From a virus (lineage: Duplodnaviria; Caudoviricetes), in IMG/VR virus record IMGVR_UViG_3300010167_000010, positions 265,019 to 329,018 of that record: a DNA stretch of 64,000 bases. The stretch is one strand, 5' to 3'. Numbering within the stretch: the stretch's first letter is position 1; each line of letters begins with the position of its first letter. Shown here one piece after another: positions 5,936 to 60,802 of this stretch. The notes below the pieces were generated by a model, which was not told the DNA's origin, did no database searches, and saw only the letters and a program-made list of their open reading frames with translations. A program made the translations under genes and the position numbers.

Positions 5936-8191
5936 TTAGAACATTTCATCACTACGTACAGGAATTAATGTAGATTGTTTAGTAGAATGCCATTTTCCAT
6001 CAGCTCCTAAATAAACTGCCCATGAAGGTACAACTTCTTTATTATCGGTAGTCATATCGTCTGTAATTTCTCCTAAACCTATTCCATAACTTATAGTTTC
6101 TCTGTGATATCTTTCATCATATACTGTATTAGGTTGATTAAAAGAATTTTTAGCATCATATTCTTTATGTAATTGATATAATCCACCAGCATTAACATTA
6201 TATTCTTTATCGTCTGAATTATTTCTGCCAATCATTCCATTATATACACCAAAATTTTGTATATGTGTAATATAATAACATAAATTCCAACGTAAACCTT
6301 TTAATTGAGATTCTATTTCTCGTAATGACCAAGGATTAGTTGATGGATTATATGATGTTGGTAAATTAATTGTATCTATTCTTTCTTTAATTAAATCTAT
6401 ATTTCCACTATTTACAATTAAAGTATTTAAGTCTATAAGTTCTTTAATTATATTATATTCTATTTGAGATGGATTATTTATCCAAGATGTAATTTCATAA
6501 TGTGGTTCTTCAGCATCTAAATTATAATCTATATTTGTTGGATCACCTATTACATCAGCATTTGTTCTATAATTTTTAAATTTATGGCTTCTAATTGATG
6601 GTCGAGTATCAACAGTAACACGTCTATCATTTAAACCTCTAGGATAACCAGCTTCTTCATTTTCTGAAACAGCTTCATTATCTGGTTTTCTACCTCCAGC
6701 TAATTCTTTAATCATTTTCCAAAGTTCATCTATTGTTGGAGATATAATACGACCATTCATTATTAAATTTCCATCTTTTGGAATTAAGATTGGAAAATCG
6801 TTATAATCTTCTGAACCTTTTCTAGATTCTGGATCAAACCAAACTTGGGGTGGAGTATCTAATGCTTCTGATGTAAAATGTGGGGTATCCATTCCATCAA
6901 TTTGCAATTCGAGTGGCTCAACAGGAAGTGCACCAATTCTACTATGTGGATCATCTGCATTTTCTATAATAAAATCCATTTGTTGACGGAAATTAAAATT
7001 GCCTTGTCTAGTTGGTAATAATGTATCTCTTAGAATATCTACTGATGGAGTTGTTGATGGTAAATAAGGTCGCGATGCTCTTGCTAAATCGCGAGCTGCT
7101 ATTGCTCCTTCTGAAAATAATTTATTATATCTTTTAAAATCACCTGTTTTAGTTAACATTAAATTTTCGTGAATAACTTTAGCTGATTTATTTAGAGATT
7201 GATCGAAATCTCTATAATCTATATAATCGGCAAAGAAAGAACATTTAATCCAAACATAACAATGTTCTAATAAATATCTTAATACTGGGTTTATATGAAG
7301 AACTATAATCCCATTACATGAAACAAAATCGTTAACTTCATTTTGCGTTAAATTTATTCTAGCATTATAATATTTCATTAAATTTTGCCAAACATTAACA
7401 GAAGAATAATTTACACAAAGTCCATTATAAGCTCTAATTTGATAAGTGTCAACATTCGTGCTATCATCATATTCACCAAAAAGAAATCTATCTTCAAAAG
7501 CCCTATCTCTATTAGATAAAATAATGTCTGCACCATCAACATTTCTAGAAACATAATCTTCTTCAACTGCAATTTTCCAAGGATAGGGATAATCAGCCCA
7601 AGTATTTGGTTCTTCTCTATTTAATGGAACTAATACTGAATTATTATAAAAATCGAAAGATGTTTGTGGTTTTAATGCTGCATCTTTATCCCATATTTTA
7701 AATCCTCGTGACTTAAAAAAATCTAAACTATCAGGATCTTGTGGGTTTAATAAAGTTAACAAATTTCCTATATCTGTTTGCGAAGCATTTCTTATATATG
7801 TAGTAACATTCGCTGGATTTAAATGTAATGGTTTAACTCTTTTATCAAATTTTGGTAAACAAATATCAAAACCAGATTTTGCCCATTGTTCAAATGTTGT
7901 TCCACCATCTCCAGGTGAGTCTTCTTTTATTAAATCTCTATAACCTAATTGAAAACTAGGAAATCTATAAATATTTTGATCAAATACTATAATATTATGT
8001 TGTAATTCTAAACCCATAGACTTAAATGAAGATTCAGTTGCATTTTTTACATATCTGGTACACAATCTATTTGCAGCATCAGTAAAAAACATCAAATCAA
8101 ATAGAGAAACTTGCATTGCAACAGGTCTATAGTTACTTTGTGATAATGGAACCTTCCATTCTCTATATAAAGTTATCGGATTATTAGCCAT
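5936..8191 (-). CDS. Probable virion structural protein, 751 aa
   Basis: Long ORF co-oriented with the giant ORF; ACTAACTATT motif directly upstream of ATG. Confidence 0.6.
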   Translation of the reverse strand: MANNPITLYREWKVPLSQSNYRPVAMQVSLFDLMFFTDAANRLCTRYVKNATESSFKSMGLELQHNIIVFDQNIYRFPSFQLGYRDLIKEDSPGDGGTTFEQWAKSGFDICLPKFDKRVKPLHLNPANVTTYIRNASQTDIGNLLTLLNPQDPDSLDFFKSRGFKIWDKDAALKPQTSFDFYNNSVLVPLNREEPNTWADYPYPWKIAVEEDYVSRNVDGADIILSNRDRAFEDRFLFGEYDDSTNVDTYQIRAYNGLCVNYSSVNVWQNLMKYYNARINLTQNEVNDFVSCNGIIVLHINPVLRYLLEHCYVWIKCSFFADYIDYRDFDQSLNKSAKVIHENLMLTKTGDFKRYNKLFSEGAIAARDLARASRPYLPSTTPSVDILRDTLLPTRQGNFNFRQQMDFIIENADDPHSRIGALPVEPLELQIDGMDTPHFTSEALDTPPQVWFDPESRKGSEDYNDFPILIPKDGNLIMNGRIISPTIDELWKMIKELAGGRKPDNEAVSENEEAGYPRGLNDRRVTVDTRPSIRSHKFKNYRTNADVIGDPTNIDYNLDAEEPHYEITSWINNPSQIEYNIIKELIDLNTLIVNSGNIDLIKERIDTINLPTSYNPSTNPWSLREIESQLKGLRWNLCYYITHIQNFGVYNGMIGRNNSDDKEYNVNAGGLYQLHKEYDAKNSFNQPNTVYDERYHRETISYGIGLGEITDDMTTDNKEVVPSWAVYLGADGKWHSTKQSTLIPVRSDEMF

Positions 8192-8255: not shown

Positions 8256-9959
8256 ATGAATATGAGTAAACAAGCACGGTTCAAATCACTACAATCAAAT
8301 GGTCCAGTATTCCCCAAAAAATGGGAACATAAGGGCTACCACGCGGCTGGAGAAAAGCTTCCCCTTCTTGCAGAAGAAATGGCTTGGAAAGCAGCTCGTT
8401 TTATTGGTTCAGATTATGAAAAAGAATGTTTCGCATCTGATTCTAATATGTGGAAATGCTTTTATCCAGAATTGACCAAATCGCAACAAAAATTATCACA
8501 TGCTGATTATATTGCGATGATGAGTGGTATGAAGGCAACACAAGAGATTTTAAAAGAAGAAAAGAAAGCTCTTTCAAAAGAAGAAAAAATAGCAATTAAA
8601 AATGAAAAAGAAGCTCTTAAAGAAAAATACGGATTCGCAATTCTTGATGGTGAAAGTGTTCCCCTTTCCGGATATATGATTGAAGAGTCAAATTGGATTT
8701 TAACTCGCGGTAAAGATCCCCGAAAATTTTGTTGGAAATATGCTGTAGAAAAATCTGATGTTACTTTGAATATTGTAAATGGAAAACCAGTTTCAGGATT
8801 TAATTGTATTTCTGATAATACAGTTATTTGGGTAATGCGATATAAAATTAAATGCGGAAGACCTGAGATGAAGGCTTTTATGGAGCTCAATAAAATTATT
8901 GCTTTTGCTCCTTCTGTTTCAGTTCGTCAAGCTAATAATTCTGGAAAATTTGATAAATCTAAAAATATTCTTAAAAATTGGAATAAAATTCAATCTCAAG
9001 TTCTTGCTGATGCTACCGATTGTTCATTAAAGAAAAATCCTAAGCATGAAGCACTTATCGTGTATCTTATTCAAGAAACTGGTATTCGTATTGGTGGTGA
9101 AAAAGATGAACGAAGAGCTAAAACTTATGGAATGAGTACTCTTGAAAAAAGACATATAACTCTTGGTTCAGATTTTACAGTAACATTTGATTTTCTTGGA
9201 AAAGATAGTGTTCCTGAAACGAGAACAATAATTATTGATGAAAATGTTTGGTATAATCTTGAAAGTCTTTTAGCTTGTAGAGATACAAATGAAAGAATAT
9301 TTAATAATGATATAGACGTTAATGGTTACCTCAAGAAAATACATCCTGGTGCAACAGTTAAAAATCTTCGTACTGTAAAATGTAATGAAGTTTTGGTAAA
9401 AAATCTTAAAACAAAAAAAGTTACAAAAACAAATACTGAGGCCGAAAAGCTTAGAGCAATATTTGAAGCAAATCTCGAAATTGCAAAGACAATGAATCAC
9501 CAAAAAAATATTGGTAAAAATCAAAAAGAAGGTGAAGTAAAAATTGCTGAAAAAGTTCAAAAAGCGAAAGCTCGTGTAAAAGAACTTAAGAAAAAGCATA
9601 AAGAGAAAATAATTAAACTTGATACTCAGGTAGCAAAAATTAAAATTGCTTTCAAAGGCATGAAGATATTAAAAGAAAAACTTGCCAAAATTGAAGAAAC
9701 AAAAATTAAAATGATTGCTCAAATGGAAAGAGCAGTAATGAGCATTGAAAAAACAGAATTTGCTCTTGACAAGAAAAAACTTACTGCGGATATTGCTTTG
9801 GGAACTTCCCTTGCAAATTATGCTGACCCTAACGTAATATATTCTTATTGCAAATACGTAGATCTCCCAATTGAAAGAATATATTCTGCTAGTCAGAGAA
9901 AAAATCTAACTTTTGCTGAAAGTGTAGATGCAAATTATTGGATAAATTACCCAAGTTAA
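8256..9959 (+). CDS. DNA topoisomerase IB, large eukaryote-like type
   Basis: Motifs SLQSNGPVFP, GIRIGGEKDE, FDFLGKDSV, VKNLRT, MNHQK, Lys-rich coiled-coil linker, IALGTSLANYADP (catalytic Tyr); R-K-R-H-Y residues present. Confidence 0.93.
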   Translation: MNMSKQARFKSLQSNGPVFPKKWEHKGYHAAGEKLPLLAEEMAWKAARFIGSDYEKECFASDSNMWKCFYPELTKSQQKLSHADYIAMMSGMKATQEILKEEKKALSKEEKIAIKNEKEALKEKYGFAILDGESVPLSGYMIEESNWILTRGKDPRKFCWKYAVEKSDVTLNIVNGKPVSGFNCISDNTVIWVMRYKIKCGRPEMKAFMELNKIIAFAPSVSVRQANNSGKFDKSKNILKNWNKIQSQVLADATDCSLKKNPKHEALIVYLIQETGIRIGGEKDERRAKTYGMSTLEKRHITLGSDFTVTFDFLGKDSVPETRTIIIDENVWYNLESLLACRDTNERIFNNDIDVNGYLKKIHPGATVKNLRTVKCNEVLVKNLKTKKVTKTNTEAEKLRAIFEANLEIAKTMNHQKNIGKNQKEGEVKIAEKVQKAKARVKELKKKHKEKIIKLDTQVAKIKIAFKGMKILKEKLAKIEETKIKMIAQMERAVMSIEKTEFALDKKKLTADIALGTSLANYADPNVIYSYCKYVDLPIERIYSASQRKNLTFAESVDANYWINYPS

Positions 9960-10414
9960 TTATGAATATGAAAAATTGGAAATACAGTTGGAAAAGCGTA
10001 ACAGACAAAGATTATATAGACTCTATTATGATCTTCTGGAAGTTTTTTAAAGAAAATTATCAAAATGTTTTCGTTTATAATGCTTGCCATTATGAAATTC
10101 GTTTAATAACTTTAAATATTGGAAGAGGAAAAGAAATTCTTTCTTCAGAAGCTGCTTCCAAATCTACACAAAAAGATGAACATCATCTTGTAGAAGCAAA
10201 ACAATTTCTTGATGAATTTAAATACTGTGTTGATAACAAAATTGAATTTACAAGAAAGGATGCAAAATCTTGGCTTATTAAGGCTAGAAATATTTACGTT
10301 ACTAAACCAGAGCACAATATTTTACATTCTAAAGTTTTCAAAGATTATAGAAAAAATAATCCGACAGAGAATATAATAAAAGTTTTAGAAAAATTTGGAA
10401 TTATTTTAATTTAA
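9938..10414 (+). CDS. Hypothetical protein, possible HNH-like nuclease (start probably 9962 or 9968)
   Basis: DEHHL ... EHNILH pattern. Confidence 0.4.
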   Translation: MDKLPKLIMNMKNWKYSWKSVTDKDYIDSIMIFWKFFKENYQNVFVYNACHYEIRLITLNIGRGKEILSSEAASKSTQKDEHHLVEAKQFLDEFKYCVDNKIEFTRKDAKSWLIKARNIYVTKPEHNILHSKVFKDYRKNNPTENIIKVLEKFGIILI

Positions 10415-10442: not shown

Positions 10443-12878
10443 ATGATTTTAGACAACAAGAATTATAATATTGAAAACAATTTGGAAACTGAATCTAGCG
10501 AATTTGAAATTGCTGCTAATGCAAAAATGTTTGATATATTATCAAATAAAATTTATGAAGATCCAATCAGAGCAGTAATTCGTGAGCTTTCCTGTAATGC
10601 TATCGATGCTAATATTGAAGTAGAAAATATTGAACCATTTAAAGTTTATCTTCCAACCCAAAATTATAAATCTTTAATTATTGAAGATAACGGTATAGGC
10701 ATGACCCATGAAGATGTTATGACAGTTTATAAATCTTATGGAAAATCTACTAAATCTAATTCTAATAAGGTAATTGGTGCATTAGGTTTAGGCGGGAAAA
10801 CACCTCTTGCTTATACTTCACAATTTATTTTAGAAACTGCAAAAGATGGAAAGAAAAATAGTTATATAATTTTTAAAGATGAAGATGGTATTCCAAACGT
10901 TACTTTAACTTCTTCAGAAGATACTGATATTTCTGGAACAAAAATTGAAATGATTGTTCGTAATGAAGATATCGATCTTTTTATTACAGCAGCTATTAAA
11001 ACTTTTGTTTTCTTTGATAAAATGCCGATAATTATGAGAGGAGAAGACGAGTTTTATAGAGTAATATATCAAAAATTTAGTAATACTATGGAAATAGGAA
11101 AGGCTAAATTAGCTTTTGATGAAGCTAGATTTTTATTAAAGAATGATTATATTTCTAATGAAAGCAACGGTGGCGATATTATTATTCGTAAAATATTAAA
11201 TAGCTATAATAGTACACATGGAATTATTATGGGACAAGTTTATTATTCAGTAAATCCTAAAGCAATTTTAAGAGATGGTTATGGAACAGCTGCTGAAGAA
11301 GTATTAAATTTTCCAAATTATAGTAATTATTCTGGCATAAGAAAAGTTATTCATGTAAATCTTGGTGATGTATCTTTTCAACCTTCACGTGAAGTATTAA
11401 ATTATAATAAATCTACAATTGCTTTACTTCAAAATAGATTTTATAATCATTTTGAAAATTATATCGTAAATATGGAAAATTACAAGGATCCAAAAACTTT
11501 CTTGAAGAATTTTTCTAAAATAAATTATGCAAAAGATGTAGTAAAAATCTCTACATGGGATGATACAAATCAAGATGTTTCTTCTATAAGAGATTTATAT
11601 AAAAATGTTATAAATTATTTGTATTCTGAAATTGATCAAAAAGAAGCAAATTATTATATTAAGCAACGCCATAATGGAACTTGGGAAGTACAAGCTATAG
11701 CTCAAGACAGCGCATCAAAAATACAAGACTTAAACACTACAAAAAGTATTTTTTCTGATATATTTGTAGAAAACAAAATAAAAAATATTATTGTATTAGA
11801 TGATGCAAATATTTCTGAAAAACTGGATAATTTTCATAAGAAAGCTTTAGAAAAACAAAGATTTTATTTTACTACTCCAATAAGTTTAAGAAATAAACTT
11901 GTTCTTCTTGATAAAACTATAAATACATTATGTGTAACTGAAAAGACAGCAAAAAAATTAAAAGCTTTTCTAAAAATAGATTTTATAAATTGTTCTAAAT
12001 TAGTAGTTACAAAAGAAGCTAAAATTAAAACAAAATCTGAAAGAGATACTTCTGCAAAATGTTATAATTATACTGAAAGAAGATATGCCGAAATTAATGA
12101 AGTATTAAAAATTACTAAGAAAAATAAAGTTACATATGAATGTTTTGAAGGAGAAGTAAATAAGAAAGGTTGGTGGTATACTCCTTTATTTGATGTAATA
12201 AATAAGAGTACAAAAATAAATAAGCAGGCTTGTATTAAAATAAATTATCATGGAAGCTATAATAATTGCAGTAATAGAGTAGAAGATTTTAATACGATAT
12301 TTAATATGCTTCCCAGTAATAGACCGCATCATTATTTGGTAGATTGGAATTTCTTTAAAAAATATATTATTGGAAATAAAAATTGGGTTCATATAAATGA
12401 TTATGCAACCAATTTAATTAAGGATAATTTTAATACAATTTCAACTAACGCATTAAATATAATTTTATTTGGTGATTCTCCATTTTATAGATCAACTCAA
12501 GCTGAGGCATTATTAAAACATGGAACTGAAAAATATCTTAATTTTGAAAATACAGCTTTTGGAATAGAATGTCAAAGAAAAATTAATGAATCGTTTAATA
12601 AAGAAACTGATATTAGCTTAAATAAAAAGACAGTATCTACATTTCATAATTCTCTTATGGGAATGAAAGAATATTTTAGTTCAGACAGTTTTAATAAACT
12701 ATTAAAAGATTTTGAAGAATTAAAATTAAAATTAGAAGCTGTCAATATAAAAAGAGTAAATTATTGTACAGAAATATATGAAAAATATCCGATGATTATT
12801 TATGCATTAAAATCTGATTTCGATAAAGATCACTTAATAAATTATATTGCAGAAAAAGAGAGCTTAGTATTAAAATGA
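10443..12878 (+). CDS. rIIA: rIIA-like protein with N-terminal GHKL/Hsp90-type ATPase
   Basis: ILSNKIYEDPIRAVIRELSCNAIDA, EDNGIGM, YGKSTK, IGALGLGGKTPLAYT, FQPSREVL are typical of phage rIIA. Confidence 0.85.
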   Translation: MILDNKNYNIENNLETESSEFEIAANAKMFDILSNKIYEDPIRAVIRELSCNAIDANIEVENIEPFKVYLPTQNYKSLIIEDNGIGMTHEDVMTVYKSYGKSTKSNSNKVIGALGLGGKTPLAYTSQFILETAKDGKKNSYIIFKDEDGIPNVTLTSSEDTDISGTKIEMIVRNEDIDLFITAAIKTFVFFDKMPIIMRGEDEFYRVIYQKFSNTMEIGKAKLAFDEARFLLKNDYISNESNGGDIIIRKILNSYNSTHGIIMGQVYYSVNPKAILRDGYGTAAEEVLNFPNYSNYSGIRKVIHVNLGDVSFQPSREVLNYNKSTIALLQNRFYNHFENYIVNMENYKDPKTFLKNFSKINYAKDVVKISTWDDTNQDVSSIRDLYKNVINYLYSEIDQKEANYYIKQRHNGTWEVQAIAQDSASKIQDLNTTKSIFSDIFVENKIKNIIVLDDANISEKLDNFHKKALEKQRFYFTTPISLRNKLVLLDKTINTLCVTEKTAKKLKAFLKIDFINCSKLVVTKEAKIKTKSERDTSAKCYNYTERRYAEINEVLKITKKNKVTYECFEGEVNKKGWWYTPLFDVINKSTKINKQACIKINYHGSYNNCSNRVEDFNTIFNMLPSNRPHHYLVDWNFFKKYIIGNKNWVHINDYATNLIKDNFNTISTNALNIILFGDSPFYRSTQAEALLKHGTEKYLNFENTAFGIECQRKINESFNKETDISLNKKTVSTFHNSLMGMKEYFSSDSFNKLLKDFEELKLKLEAVNIKRVNYCTEIYEKYPMIIYALKSDFDKDHLINYIAEKESLVLK

Positions 12879-41473: not shown

Positions 41474-42328
41474 ATGGTTATTAATAATAACTTAAGTGCA
41501 TTATTTGCACAACGGATGCTTGGAATAAACAACAAGGAAGTTTCCAAGCAATTAGAAAAATTAGCATCTGGTTTAAGAATAAACAGAGCTGCAGATGACA
41601 GCGCGAATTTAGCAGTATCTGAAAAGATGAGAGCTCAAATCCGCGGACTTCAACAAGCTTCAGCTAATACACAAAATGGTGTATCTTTTATTCAAACTAC
41701 AGAAGCACATCTTGTAAACACAACAGATATTTTACAACGTTTAAGAGAATTAGCAGTTCAAGCATCAAATGGAATTTATTCAGACGAAGATCGTTTAATG
41801 ATTCAAGTTGAAGTATCACAATTGGTTTCCGAAATTGATCGTATTGCAAGTCACGCTCAATTTAATGGGATGAATTTACTTACTGGTAGATTTGCTAGAC
41901 AAACTGGAACACAAGATATGTTTTTTCATGTTGGTGCAAACATGGATCAGCGCATTCAAGCTCATATTGGTGAAATGACAGCTCAAGCTCTTGGTATGCG
42001 AAATGAACAGGGCTCTAATGAAATTATCTCTTTAAGAGATACAGAATCATCAAATATGGCACTCGGTAGTATCGACGCCGCTCTTCGCATCGTCAACAAA
42101 CAACGAGCTGATTTAGGTGCATTGCAAAACAGAATGGAACATGCACAACGAGGTATCGACATCGCAAGAGAAAATCTACAAGCATCTGAAAGTAGAATTA
42201 GAGATGCAGACATGGCAGCAGAAACTACAAAATATGTCAAAGATCAAATTTTAATGCAAGCAGCTGTAGCAATGTTAAGCCATGCAAATGGAAACTCACA
42301 AAACGTATTACGACTTTTAGGTATGTAA
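41474..42328 (+). CDS. flaB: Spirochaete-type flagellar filament core protein FlaB
   Basis: [76 protein letters not shown]; 284 aa. Confidence 0.95.
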
Positions 42329-47610: not shown

Positions 47611-48057
47611 ATGTTAAAAGCAGAAGACATGCTCAATATTATCAAAAGGGGCATAACGTATCAAAATAATTTAAACGATAGTTATTCTTATGTAAGTGTA
47701 GAAAATGAAATAAACTTATGTCCATTTTGTGGTAATAAAATGACAGTTGCAAAAAGTAATGGAAAATGGGTACAACTTTGTAATTGTAAAGAAGGAGTAG
47801 AATTTTGTTGTAAAATAAGAGATCTACTTATTGAAAAAGATAAAATAGAAAATGAATTATCTGATATATACGCAGATATAGAAAAAAGGGCTTTTATAGT
47901 TTTTAAAAATTATTATAAAGGTAATTTTATTCCTTATCTAGAAAAATTACAACAAATAGAAAATAAAATTATTTTAGAAATGCCTTTTTTAACTACAGAT
48001 GAAAATTTAATACAAAAAATGAGGGAAAAAATATTATGCCTGCAGGAAAACGAATAG
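47611..48057 (+). CDS. Zn-ribbon hypothetical protein
   Basis: CPFCG ... CNC. Confidence 0.55.
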   Translation: MLKAEDMLNIIKRGITYQNNLNDSYSYVSVENEINLCPFCGNKMTVAKSNGKWVQLCNCKEGVEFCCKIRDLLIEKDKIENELSDIYADIEKRAFIVFKNYYKGNFIPYLEKLQQIENKIILEMPFLTTDENLIQKMREKILCLQENE

Positions 48058-49703
48058 AGCGTTCTAAAACAGCTCGTGAACAAATTTTAAAAGGAATGTT
48101 AGAAGTATCTAAAACAGTTTCTTCAACATACGGCCCATGCGGTCGTACTGTTGGTTTTGATAGAGGAGGTTCTTTTAGAATTACTAAAGATGGAATTACA
48201 GTAGCTAGAGAAATAAAATTTTCTGACGAAGCTAAAAACTTTGGAGCAATGCTTATTAAAGAAGCTGCAGGTAAAAGTAATTATATAAGTGGAGACGGTA
48301 GTTCTTCTACAACTATTTTAACTGCTGAATTATGCGCGGCAGCTCATAATTTATTAAATCAAGGGATTGATATTAATGATTTACGAACTGGTTTTGAAGT
48401 AGCGGAAAAAGTAGTATTAGAATGTTTAGAAAAATATCAAACTATAATGAATAAAGAAGAAGATATTTTTAATATAGCAAAAATATCAGCTAATAACGAT
48501 GAAGAAATTGCAAAACATATTCAAGAAGCTTTTTTAGCAATTGGAGATAACGGTATAGTATCTATTGCTGATAGTTTATCTCGTAAAGGAGAAACTACAG
48601 TTAAAATATCTTCTGGTATAGAATTTGATAGAGGATTTTTATCATCACTTTGTGTAAATTCTACTAATGATCAATGTATTTTACATGATGCTAAATTTTT
48701 GTTATCTACTGATATATTAAATAGCCCACAAGATTTACATGTGCTTATTCAAATGGTGCAAATGAATAAATGGCCTTTAATTATTATTGCCCCAGACTTT
48801 GATGAAGAAGTAATGGCTTGGCATAGAGAAATGATTTCTAAAAAAATGTTAACAGGTTCATTAGTATTAGCACCTGGTGTATCTAAATTAAATATTGCAG
48901 ATAATTTATTAGATTTAGCTGTTTTAACTAATGCTACTATTTTAGGTCAAGATGTTTCTTTAAATGATTTTGATGTACATAATCATTTAGGTTCAGCAGA
49001 TCAAGTTGTAATCACTAAAGGGAAAACTACTATTTTGGGAGCAGGAACTAATCAAGAAAGATTTGATAAACATATAGAATTTTTACAAGCTAAAGTCGAT
49101 CATGATAGTGCTGAAATTGGTTATTCAGAATATGAATTACAAAATATAAAAGAAAGAATTGCTAAAATGACTGGTGGAGTCGCAACAATTTTTATTGGTT
49201 CTTTAACTTCAGTAGAATTAGGTGAAAAGAAAGATAGATATGAAGATGCAATAAATTCAGTTAGAGCAATGTTAAGTGAAGGATACATTCCAGGAGCATC
49301 AACCCCTTTATTAAGAATTTCGTATAATCAATTTAATTATTGTGACCAATTTAATTCAGAACAAATGAGTATTGGTTCACGAACATCATTTAAATCTTAT
49401 ATGAAAGCAATTAGAATACCATCACAAATTTTAATTAGATCTTCAGGTGAAGATTATGAAAATGTTGTTCAAGATATTTTAAAACTCAGTGATAATGAGG
49501 GTTTTAATGTTAAAAAAAGAAAAATAGAAAACTTAATAGATTCTGGAATAATAGATCCATATAAAATAATTTATAACTCAATATTATACGCATCTAATGT
49601 AGCTGAACAATTTATGGGTTTAGATTCTATTATAATTTCTGACGTACGAAACTTGTCAGTAGAATCTTTAGATGATATATTAAATGAAGATGGAGTAAGA
49701 TAA
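48036..49703 (+). CDS. groEL: Phage GroEL-like chaperonin
   Basis: TYGPCGR, ITKDGITVA, GDGSSSTT, GIEFDRGF, ERIAKMTGGVA, EKKDRYEDA, GIIDP. Confidence 0.92.
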   Translation: MPAGKRIERSKTAREQILKGMLEVSKTVSSTYGPCGRTVGFDRGGSFRITKDGITVAREIKFSDEAKNFGAMLIKEAAGKSNYISGDGSSSTTILTAELCAAAHNLLNQGIDINDLRTGFEVAEKVVLECLEKYQTIMNKEEDIFNIAKISANNDEEIAKHIQEAFLAIGDNGIVSIADSLSRKGETTVKISSGIEFDRGFLSSLCVNSTNDQCILHDAKFLLSTDILNSPQDLHVLIQMVQMNKWPLIIIAPDFDEEVMAWHREMISKKMLTGSLVLAPGVSKLNIADNLLDLAVLTNATILGQDVSLNDFDVHNHLGSADQVVITKGKTTILGAGTNQERFDKHIEFLQAKVDHDSAEIGYSEYELQNIKERIAKMTGGVATIFIGSLTSVELGEKKDRYEDAINSVRAMLSEGYIPGASTPLLRISYNQFNYCDQFNSEQMSIGSRTSFKSYMKAIRIPSQILIRSSGEDYENVVQDILKLSDNEGFNVKKRKIENLIDSGIIDPYKIIYNSILYASNVAEQFMGLDSIIISDVRNLSVESLDDILNEDGVR

Positions 49704-59488: not shown

Positions 59489-60802
59489 ATGGATAAGAAA
59501 CTTCAATCTTTATTTAATTTTATTCAAGAAAACGAAAATTGGTATGAGCTTTTAAAAGATGCTCCATATAATTTACGAATACGAGAACATCCCCATATAA
59601 AAAATAGATTTATATTCTCATACGATATGATCAGATCTGATATGAGTTTTGATATTGTAAAAGTATCTAGGGGCCTCGTTCTTGATGTTATAACGAAACA
59701 TTTATTTGATGATTCTAAAGATTACTCAAAGGTTGAACCAGAAAAAGTAAGAAAATGTGAAGTCATAATTAGAGGTTTTGATAAATTTTTTAATCACGGT
59801 GAAACTAATGCTGATAAAATAGATTGGAATGGTCCAATATATGCATTTGAAAAATTAGATGGTTCTCTTATAAAATATACTACAATAAAAGATGTTTATC
59901 CAAAAACCCATCATGGTGTTTGGTATAGAAAATTATGGACAACAAATAATGGGTTTGATGCTAGTGCAAGTTTACCAGGTGACTTAATTTGTGAATATGA
60001 AACATTTCAAGATTTAATAGATGAAGCAATAAAAAATTGGGATCAGAGCATTATTTATGAAATGAAAGAATTGGGAAAAGATTTAGTTTTTATGTTTGAA
60101 CTTGTATCTCCATTTAATAGGGTTGTAGTTCCATACAATATGATCGAACTTTATTGGTTAGGTTGTAGATGCAAAATAACTGGAAAAGAATATTTACCTC
60201 GAGATTTAGTTCATATTGGAACAGATAAAAAGTTTAACTCATCAGTAAGTAAATTATTATATGGGATAAAACAACCAAAAGTTTATCAGATGGAAACAAA
60301 AACTGTTGCAGAAATAATAAATTTAGTTTCTGAAATGGGTGCAGATAAAGAAGGGATAGTTTTAGTAGATCAACATTTTAATAGAATAAAAATTAAAGGT
60401 GAAGCTTATCTTTCAGTTCATAGAATGAAAGATAATAGTGGGCAGTTATCAACAGAACATGTTCTTAAGTGTATTCAAAATGAAACTATCGATGATATAA
60501 TTGGAATGTTTCCAGAATATAATCAAAAAATTCAAGAAGTAGTTAGTCTGTATAAAACTGTAGATTCTAAAATTGATGAAGTATTTTATATGTATGACCA
60601 TCACATTGCTAATATATATCATGCTGATAAAGATGGTCCAACAATGAAAAAAGAATTTGCAATGAAAGTTAAAGATAGTCCATTCTCAAAAATATATTTT
60701 AATATATATAAATGGGGAAAACTTCCAGAAATAAAATCAGACTTTCTTAATAATTTAGATTTAGATTCTTTAAAAAAATATTCGGAGATAAAAGTTGAAT
60801 AA
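59489..60802 (+). CDS. RNA ligase (T4 Rnl1-like)
   Basis: SRGLVL, GFDKFFN, EKLDGSL motif I, MFELVSP.NRVVV.Y, KEGIVL, RIKIK...Y. Confidence 0.88.
   Translation: MDKKLQSLFNFIQENENWYELLKDAPYNLRIREHPHIKNRFIFSYDMIRSDMSFDIVKVSRGLVLDVITKHLFDDSKDYSKVEPEKVRKCEVIIRGFDKFFNHGETNADKIDWNGPIYAFEKLDGSLIKYTTIKDVYPKTHHGVWYRKLWTTNNGFDASASLPGDLICEYETFQDLIDEAIKNWDQSIIYEMKELGKDLVFMFELVSPFNRVVVPYNMIELYWLGCRCKITGKEYLPRDLVHIGTDKKFNSSVSKLLYGIKQPKVYQMETKTVAEIINLVSEMGADKEGIVLVDQHFNRIKIKGEAYLSVHRMKDNSGQLSTEHVLKCIQNETIDDIIGMFPEYNQKIQEVVSLYKTVDSKIDEVFYMYDHHIANIYHADKDGPTMKKEFAMKVKDSPFSKIYFNIYKWGKLPEIKSDFLNNLDLDSLKKYSEIKVE

Follow-up and report, generated by a model that had tools for sequence, protein, structure and literature searches.

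A long-form topoisomerase IB gene in a jumbo phage

We analyzed a 64,000-nucleotide stretch of viral DNA (hereafter, the window), which is the last 64 kb of a 329,018-bp IMG/VR virus record with terminal repeats (IMGVR_UViG_3300010167_000010), and focused on a gene near its start that encodes a putative topoisomerase IB (TopIB). The gene is the sole long frame at its locus in the list of open reading frames (ORFs), with 567 codons, and is single-copy in the 329-kb genome. Table 1 sets out its parts, its neighbors and other genes of the window.

Table 1. Features of the TopIB locus and of other genes in the window
Feature	Position in window	Strand	Basis
751-aa protein, divergently transcribed upstream neighbor	5936..8191	-	no family match; homologues in the same position in L007-L010
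Long-form TopIB gene, 567 aa	8256..9959, stop codon included	+	ORF list, three Pfam domains, human Top1 alignment, AlphaFold2 model
N-terminal DNA-binding "cap", Topoisom_I_N, residues 8-197	8277..8846	+	PF02919
Arg151 codon (= human R364), within cap	8706-8708	+	codon checked
Catalytic core, Topoisom_I, residues 222-447	8919..9596	+	PF01028
Arg278 codon	9087-9089	+	codon checked
Lys316 codon	9201-9203	+	codon checked
Arg372 codon	9369-9371	+	codon checked
His415 codon	9498-9500	+	codon checked
Linker, two long antiparallel Lys/Glu-rich helices, residues 423-465 and 471-509	9522..9782	+	DSSP on AlphaFold2 model
C-terminal domain, Topo_C_assoc, residues 497-561	9744..9938	+	PF14370
Nucleophile Tyr522 codon, Asn521 directly before	9819-9821	+	codon checked
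158-aa ORF between TopIB and rIIA, separate from the enzyme	9938..10414	+	ORF list; no family match
rIIA homologue, conserved downstream neighbor	10443..12878	+	phrog_612 RIIA, E 5e-85
HNH protein, 631 aa	26256-28151	+	HNH endonuclease domain at residues 452-567 only; no family match for the rest
Flagellin, complete	41474-42328	+	Flagellin_N and Flagellin_C Pfam domains
GroEL-type chaperonin	48036-49703	+	phrog_5725, E 8e-101
T4 RnlA-type RNA ligase	59489-60802	+	phrog_562, E 2e-43

The product matched the three Pfam models that together define long-form TopIB, each above its curated cut-off: Topoisom_I_N (E = 3e-22; 79.5 bits, the cut-off being 25), Topoisom_I (E = 7e-41) and Topo_C_assoc (E = 6e-15). 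When PDB sequences were searched with phmmer, residues 8 to 555 gave an end-to-end alignment to human Top1 (E = 2e-42), and Caldiarchaeum TOP1 was matched at E = 1e-38. Matches to the short enzymes of Deinococcus and variola covered the catalytic part alone (E = 1e-6 and 3e-5, respectively). A sequence-only reading of this DNA had proposed that the protein carries features of the large Top1 form beyond the catalytic core, and both the three domains and the end-to-end alignment agree with it. All the motifs which that reading quoted were found in the ORF translation, namely FKSLQSNGPVFP at residues 9-20, NHQK at 414-417, IALGTSLANYADP at 513-525 and, toward the C terminus, YCKYVDLPIERIY at 531-543 and QRK at 547-549.

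The alignment pairs human R488, K532, R590, H632 and Y723 with phage R278, K316, R372, H415 and Y522. This catalytic pentad, together with R151, was invariant in an alignment of 26 sequences of relatives (A1), and in a sample of 89 long TopIBs from across phages, archaea, giant viruses and eukaryotes the catalytic residues were kept in 88-89 of the 89 and the tyrosine in every one. The guanine-plus-cytosine (GC) content of the gene is 31.3%, compared with 28.8% for the window, and a scan for promoters and terminators around the gene gave no more signals than shuffled sequence. Together with the predicted fold described below, these results indicate that the protein is a full-length, intact Top1-type enzyme encoded by a genuine bacteriophage.

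Predicted fold and comparison with known topoisomerases

An AlphaFold2 model was built from the 26-sequence alignment and reached a mean predicted local distance difference test score (pLDDT) of 91.4 and a predicted template-modeling score (pTM) of 0.81. In this model, the two linker helices lie between His415 and Tyr522, and 44% of residues 418-512 are charged, in keeping with the coiled-coil linker that had been proposed between NHQK and the catalytic tyrosine. Using Foldseek, the model was superposed on the human Top1-DNA complexes 1K4T and 1RRJ with template-modeling (TM) scores of 0.79-0.81 over ~584 columns, as against 0.24-0.31 for the variola and Deinococcus short enzymes. The TM score with archaeal 6Z01 was 0.45, which we attribute to conformation, since 6Z01 is an open apo form and the model is closed. 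The fold is thus predicted to be the Top1 clamp with a two-helix coiled-coil linker.

Human Top1 (Topo70; 1K4T, 1A36 and 1RRJ) is made up of the same four parts, i.e., cap, core, coiled-coil linker and tyrosine domain, and uses the same catalytic pentad, and the linker of the phage enzyme is long, as in eukaryotes. However, the two proteins are only ~25% identical, the ~200-residue charged N-terminal extension of the human enzyme is missing from the phage protein, Ile and Thr stand at the positions of human F361 and G363, and the phage enzyme, encoded by a virus of bacteria, sits on a separate deep branch. Archaeal long TopIBs (CsTOP1, 6Z01 and thaumarchaeal and Asgard enzymes; PMC4824112, PMC8748870) are of similar size (~520-560 aa), have no N-terminal extension and match the phage enzyme in domains and catalytic residues, although their linkers are mostly shorter. 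The long TopIBs of giant viruses (Dasosvirus, Marseillevirus LCMAC101/202 and metagenome genomes) are viral and full-length like that of the phage, with tblastn matches spanning query residues 8-561, but they group with eukaryotes far from the clade of the phage enzyme (phA, see below), have short linkers and come from viruses of eukaryotic hosts.

A different comparison is offered by the TopIBs of the jumbo phages phiRSL1, Motura, BCSR5 and PaBG (PMC7824862), which are also phage-encoded and carry the IB catalytic domain within a total length of 541-562 aa, but in which the catalytic Pfam domain is found without Topoisom_I_N or Topo_C_assoc. These enzymes gave TM scores of 0.34-0.44 to our model and branch outside all long forms, and phiRSL1 also has a type IIA enzyme, unlike the phage studied here. 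To judge from the structure models, the phiRSL1/PaBG-type enzymes may keep a remote long architecture that is invisible to Pfam. The short bacterial and poxviral TopIBs (2F4Q/3M4A and 2H7F) have the catalytic fold and chemistry in common with the phage enzyme, but they are ~310-350 aa long, lack a linker and have a small N-terminal domain of another kind, and the bacterial ones carry Asn where long forms have the catalytic His. The background on which the sequence-only reading had relied, that bacterial and poxviral TopIBs are short, was incomplete, in that giant viruses have long forms and phiRSL1-like phages have a divergent, core-only TopIB.

Relatives of the phage enzyme

The full-length relatives recovered by a word-indexed search form a gradient from 64% to ~30% identity, and all of them have the three domains. 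Named proteins from Thaumarchaeota, Thorarchaeota and eukaryotes were only 26-31% identical, and ~31% was the maximum for any cellular or giant-virus sequence. An exhaustive search returned 1,887 matches. The genomic context of the relatives was phage-like in every case checked (about a dozen). Some relatives lay near HNH, IstB and DnaB genes and others near giant fiber-like proteins; one context held RtcB, DHH, DnaJ and a CCA-adding enzyme amid many small ORFs, another held ribonucleotide reductase, dUTPase, uracil-DNA glycosylase, a T4 alpha-glucosyltransferase and dCMP deaminase, and a further one held many small ORFs with radical-SAM, SLT and methyltransferase domains. Baseplate wedge genes were present on the whole records of six loci (L008, L011, L013, L014, L015 and L077).

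Scanning IMG/VR with patterns gave 155 viral contigs that carry a long TopIB, and many of these are giant-virus metagenome genomes. In BFVD, full-length matches came only from giant viruses (Dasosvirus and Marseillevirus LCMAC; TM 0.74-0.75), and phage entries (Motura and PaBG) matched in part only; the match to S5VM74, a putative topoisomerase I of Pseudomonas phage PaBG, ran over 573 columns at a TM score of 0.44, beyond the catalytic domain alone. No match to the phage TopIB was obtained by tblastn among 50,697 GenBank phage records, and a relative from phage clade B (see below) matched, in GenBank phages, only the catalytic part of the phiRSL1, Motura and BCSR5 enzymes (35% of the query at 25-27% identity). 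Narrow, subclade-specific patterns gave one match among the GTDB species representatives, a result that is uninformative for bacteria at large. This match, CAIKLL010000067.1 (L087/L092), is a 2,263-bp contig binned with an uncultured Rickettsiales bacterium, and its TopIB clusters with those of giant viruses. The contig is probably a fragment from a giant virus or a eukaryote that was put in the wrong bin, and its gene not a bacterial one.

In the literature, the long form is placed in eukaryotes, Thaumarchaeota, Aigarchaeota, Bathyarchaeota and some Asgard archaea, and viral and bacterial forms are described as short (PMC2621148, PMC4824112, PMC8748870, PMC12395588), while a comparative survey of jumbo phages names only the phiRSL1-type "phage-specific" TopIB (PMC7824862). 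Long TopIBs in viruses of eukaryotes have been annotated before. We found no description of a long TopIB in tailed phages in the literature searched, which left most subscription journals outside its coverage. Together, these results indicate that the enzyme studied here is one member of a large, deep, phage-borne branch of long TopIBs.

Phylogeny and linker length

We placed the enzyme using a FastTree phylogeny of 202 long TopIBs, a quick IQ-TREE phylogeny of 89, and a more careful maximum-likelihood tree of 57 sequences and 545 columns under LG+C20+F+G4, from which all supports are quoted. The three trees agree. The clade that contains the phage enzyme (phA), the deepest of the phage clades, was recovered with support of 98/88, and a 100/100 branch separated phA and a small grade next to it from everything else. 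Archaea formed a group that excluded all phage sequences (100/99), eukaryotes and giant viruses formed another without the phage TopIB (100/100), and archaea, eukaryotes and giant viruses came together with support of 86/91. Two other phage clades, B (85/70) and C, the latter joined to the cellular clan (92/87), are nearer to that clan than is phA. By trees and domains, the phage TopIB therefore lies outside the eukaryotic nuclear Top1 clade, the archaeal clade and the short bacterial/poxviral group. The sequence-only reading had anticipated an unexpected phage branch apart from the short bacterial enzymes, and such a branch is what the trees recover; its label "eukaryote/thaumarchaeal-type" fits the long architecture of the protein but not its descent, since its clade is a phage one, set apart from archaea, eukaryotes and giant viruses by the 100/100 branch. 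The position of the phage genes outside every cellular and giant-virus group, which we take to exclude a recent capture, suggests that the TopIB gene is an old, vertically kept phage gene and was not recently acquired from an archaeon, a eukaryote or a giant virus.

The distance between the catalytic His and Tyr, which we used as a proxy for linker length, was 106 residues in the phage enzyme and 90 in human Top1. Its medians were 101-113 for the phage clades, 97.5 for eukaryotes, 67 for archaea and 67-71 for giant viruses, a distribution that does not follow the branching of the tree. Ahead of the conserved core, the phage protein has 7 residues, compared with a median of 203 in eukaryotes.

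We also built a tree of the catalytic domain with short bacterial TopIBs and phiRSL1-type enzymes as outgroups, in which the root fell on the phA side and the cellular clade was placed inside a phage grade. The branch to the short forms used as outgroup was 1.12 long, and long-branch effects are a known risk for rooting of this kind. When all phage sequences were constrained to be monophyletic, the likelihood was slightly better than that of the free outgroup tree (approximately unbiased [AU] test, p = 0.69), so that the root and the direction of ancient transfer are not fixed by these data. The relevance to the origin of Top1 that had been suggested for this gene thus stands as far as a deep phage branch is concerned, and stops short of a direction of transfer. 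One could go further and propose that long TopIB arose, or first diversified, in tailed phages, and that the archaeal and eukaryotic Top1 (plus that of giant viruses) came from a phage-like donor, because the cellular clade is nested in the phage grade of the outgroup-rooted tree and because a long coiled-coil linker is common to phages and eukaryotes but not to most archaea or giant viruses. We regard this proposal as tentative and, on balance, unlikely. The taxon sampling behind arguments on Top1 origin is altered by this large and deeply diverged group of long TopIBs in viruses of bacteria, and with it the "out of viruses" idea for topoisomerases can be put to the test for type IB enzymes.

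Carrier genome and host

The virus record is 100% complete by CheckV and has a GC content of 28.5%. Its ends carry an exact 123-bp repeat (genome positions 1-123 and 328896-329018), a repeat that may stem from overlap in the assembly of a genome that is circularly permuted rather than mark a physical end. In addition to the rIIA homologue, chaperonin and RNA ligase of Table 1, the window carries DnaB, an endolysin and a DnaC-like loader, and a baseplate wedge protein is encoded outside the window in the same genome. Pfam searches of the genome for the capsid of NCLDV (nucleocytoplasmic large DNA viruses; PF04451) and for Gp23 gave no match, neither search having a positive control, and those for the sheath and Terminase_6N gave no match either; with the models tried on the genome, capsid and terminase were thus without a match, and the evidence for a portal was weak. 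Capsid and terminase genes that escape recognition are common in divergent jumbo phages. Since the capsid- and terminase-type Pfam searches were empty, it is the PHROG hits on which phage identity rests, and these indicate that the carrier is a tailed phage (Caudoviricetes) of bacteria, of jumbo size.

Identity between the flagellin encoded in the window and those of Treponemataceae, Termitinemataceae and other Spirochaetia is 64-68%, and a related 328-kb phage contig carries a homologue as well. The gene is a good host marker, and it may serve in interference with motility. Termite-gut metagenome runs in three studies contained DNA of the TopIB gene, and some of these runs are perhaps the source sample. 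Taken together, sequence similarity and occurrence indicate that the host is very probably a spirochaete, and probably a Treponema-like one of the termite gut.

Gene neighborhood and search for other topoisomerases

The TopIB gene is divergent from two very large genes without assigned function and co-directional with rIIA. The block is made up of a large protein and the 751-aa protein, followed on the opposite strand by TopIB, rIIA, a 284-aa protein and a radical-SAM protein, and this order is kept in four related viral contigs (L007-L010) as well as in the 328-kb contig (of P0005), in which rIIA starts 28 bases after TopIB. Across the four closest phage loci, identity was higher for TopIB (52-64%) than for rIIA (36-44%) and for the 751-aa protein (34-53%), which speaks for an intact TopIB gene. 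The 158-aa ORF between TopIB and rIIA is peculiar to this genome, with nothing matched by tblastn in the related loci, and has the look of a lineage-specific insertion.

In T4, the topoisomerase II genes 39 and 60 are found directly upstream of rIIA on the same strand (L109 12-5328), so that the slot taken by TopIB here is occupied there by unrelated topoisomerase genes. T4 topoisomerase II (gp39/gp52/gp60) is likewise a phage-encoded relaxing enzyme, but it is an analogue in function and position only, being an unrelated, ATP-dependent, double-strand-passing type IIA enzyme.

We searched the phage genome for other topoisomerases and obtained no match to PF00521 (type IIA A-subunit), PF00204 (GyrB-type) or PF01131 (type IA). 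Similarly, a type IIA A-subunit was found in none of nine phage records with a long TopIB, two of which are at least 98% complete, while T4 and phiRSL1, used as controls, were strongly positive. The phage TopIB thus appears to be the sole recognizable topoisomerase of its genome.

Proposed function and alternatives

The best explanation overall, which we hold with considerable confidence, is that the gene encodes an active long-form swivelase that relieves torsional stress and that it is an old gene of the phage clade. What is seen directly is the sequence with its domains and catalytic residues, the fold, the setting in a phage and the place in the trees, whereas enzymatic activity and a role in the infection cycle are inferred. 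If the enzyme works like the Top1 proteins of known structure, its cap and catalytic domains would clamp duplex DNA, and Tyr522, helped by Arg278, Lys316, Arg372 and His415, would nick one strand and form a 3'-phosphotyrosyl link. The cut strand would then rotate under the restraint of the coiled-coil linker and be religated, with both positive and negative supercoils being removed without ATP. Most likely, the enzyme would relieve torsional stress in the replication and transcription of the 329-kb genome and would fill the slot given to a type II enzyme in T4-like phages. This swivelase role is suggested because no other topoisomerase was found and because the gene has a T4-like position before rIIA. 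If so, very large phage genomes would have an alternative way of managing supercoiling, T4-type topoisomerase II being missing in nine of nine long-TopIB records.

Several points weigh against this explanation. The role in replication and transcription is drawn only from gene content and position, and spirochaete hosts have gyrase and TopA, so that the phage enzyme may be dispensable. The finding of no other topoisomerase rests on three Pfam models, by which a very divergent enzyme could be missed, and several of the related viral records are 41-80% complete, making the absence of a type II enzyme weaker evidence there. Moreover, many members of the "phage" clade come from a library that carries no genomic context, and the contexts examined number about a dozen.

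We considered whether the enzyme might act on the host instead, as a weapon of takeover which, expressed early, relaxes the negative supercoils of the host chromosome and so collapses host transcription and replication. Relaxation of negative supercoils by type IB enzymes needs no ATP, bacteria of this kind lack a TopIB with which to buffer such an attack, and the rIIA-containing block around the gene is of a sort typical for early, host-interaction genes. Nothing in the sequence is specific to host DNA, however, and the lack of a type II enzyme in all nine long-TopIB phage records fits the housekeeping of a large phage genome. Although the two roles are not mutually exclusive, we consider takeover improbable as the explanation.

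A specialized, sequence-specific enzyme of the poxvirus type, either carried in the virion or serving recombination or the processing of concatemers, is more improbable still. Poxviral TopIB is packaged and cleaves a specific pentamer, and the very large proteins encoded on the opposite strand next to the phage gene are possibly structural. An archaeal long enzyme also has its own cleavage-site preference (PMC4824112). Yet both the architecture and the fold are those of a general long swivelase (TM of 0.8, against 0.3 for the pox type), and TopIB is divergent from the large genes and co-directional with rIIA.

Recent capture from an archaeon, a eukaryote or a giant virus, or chimeric assembly that put a cellular gene on a phage contig, might be entertained given that eukaryotes, some archaea and giant viruses were earlier the only known sources of long TopIB (PMC8748870; BFVD matches) and that termite guts hold protists and archaea, but it has next to no probability, as the GC content of the gene matches the phage, the same block of five genes is found again in four independent viral contigs of relatives and in the 328-kb contig, the DNA occurs in several termite-gut runs, cellular and giant-virus identity ends at ~31% against the graded phage-context series of 66% to 30%, and the 100/100 branch parts the clade from all cellular groups.

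Camptothecin site

The phage enzyme had also been proposed to be possibly camptothecin-sensitive, a suggestion that the site does not support. Human R364, D533, T718 and N722, which contact the drug, are kept as phage R151, D317, T517 and N521, but Ile148 and Thr150 stand in for human F361 and G363, at two positions that are variable within phA. CsTOP1 is resistant to both camptothecin and non-camptothecin poisons despite carrying F361, R364, D533 and N722 (PMC4824112), and since an enzyme with kept contact residues can be resistant, drug sensitivity cannot be predicted from sequence. If anything, the sequence leans toward resistance. As small, extension-free, mesophilic Top1 enzymes with a linker of eukaryotic length, these phage proteins are possible models for linker function and for how structure underlies camptothecin trapping.

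Half-length relatives

Some relatives (P0121, P0123, P0128, P0130, P0136, P0142 and others) are of half length, starting or stopping near residues 297-311, with the break between the equivalents of Arg278 and Lys316, and reach 64% identity. One of them (L108 1228-2136, from P0121) is a complete gene for a 302-aa N-terminal half, 64% identical to the phage enzyme, and the 4 kb downstream of it hold no C-terminal half. The TopIB gene of the phage studied here is unsplit. T4 topoisomerase II is also split, with a homing-endonuclease remnant between its parts.

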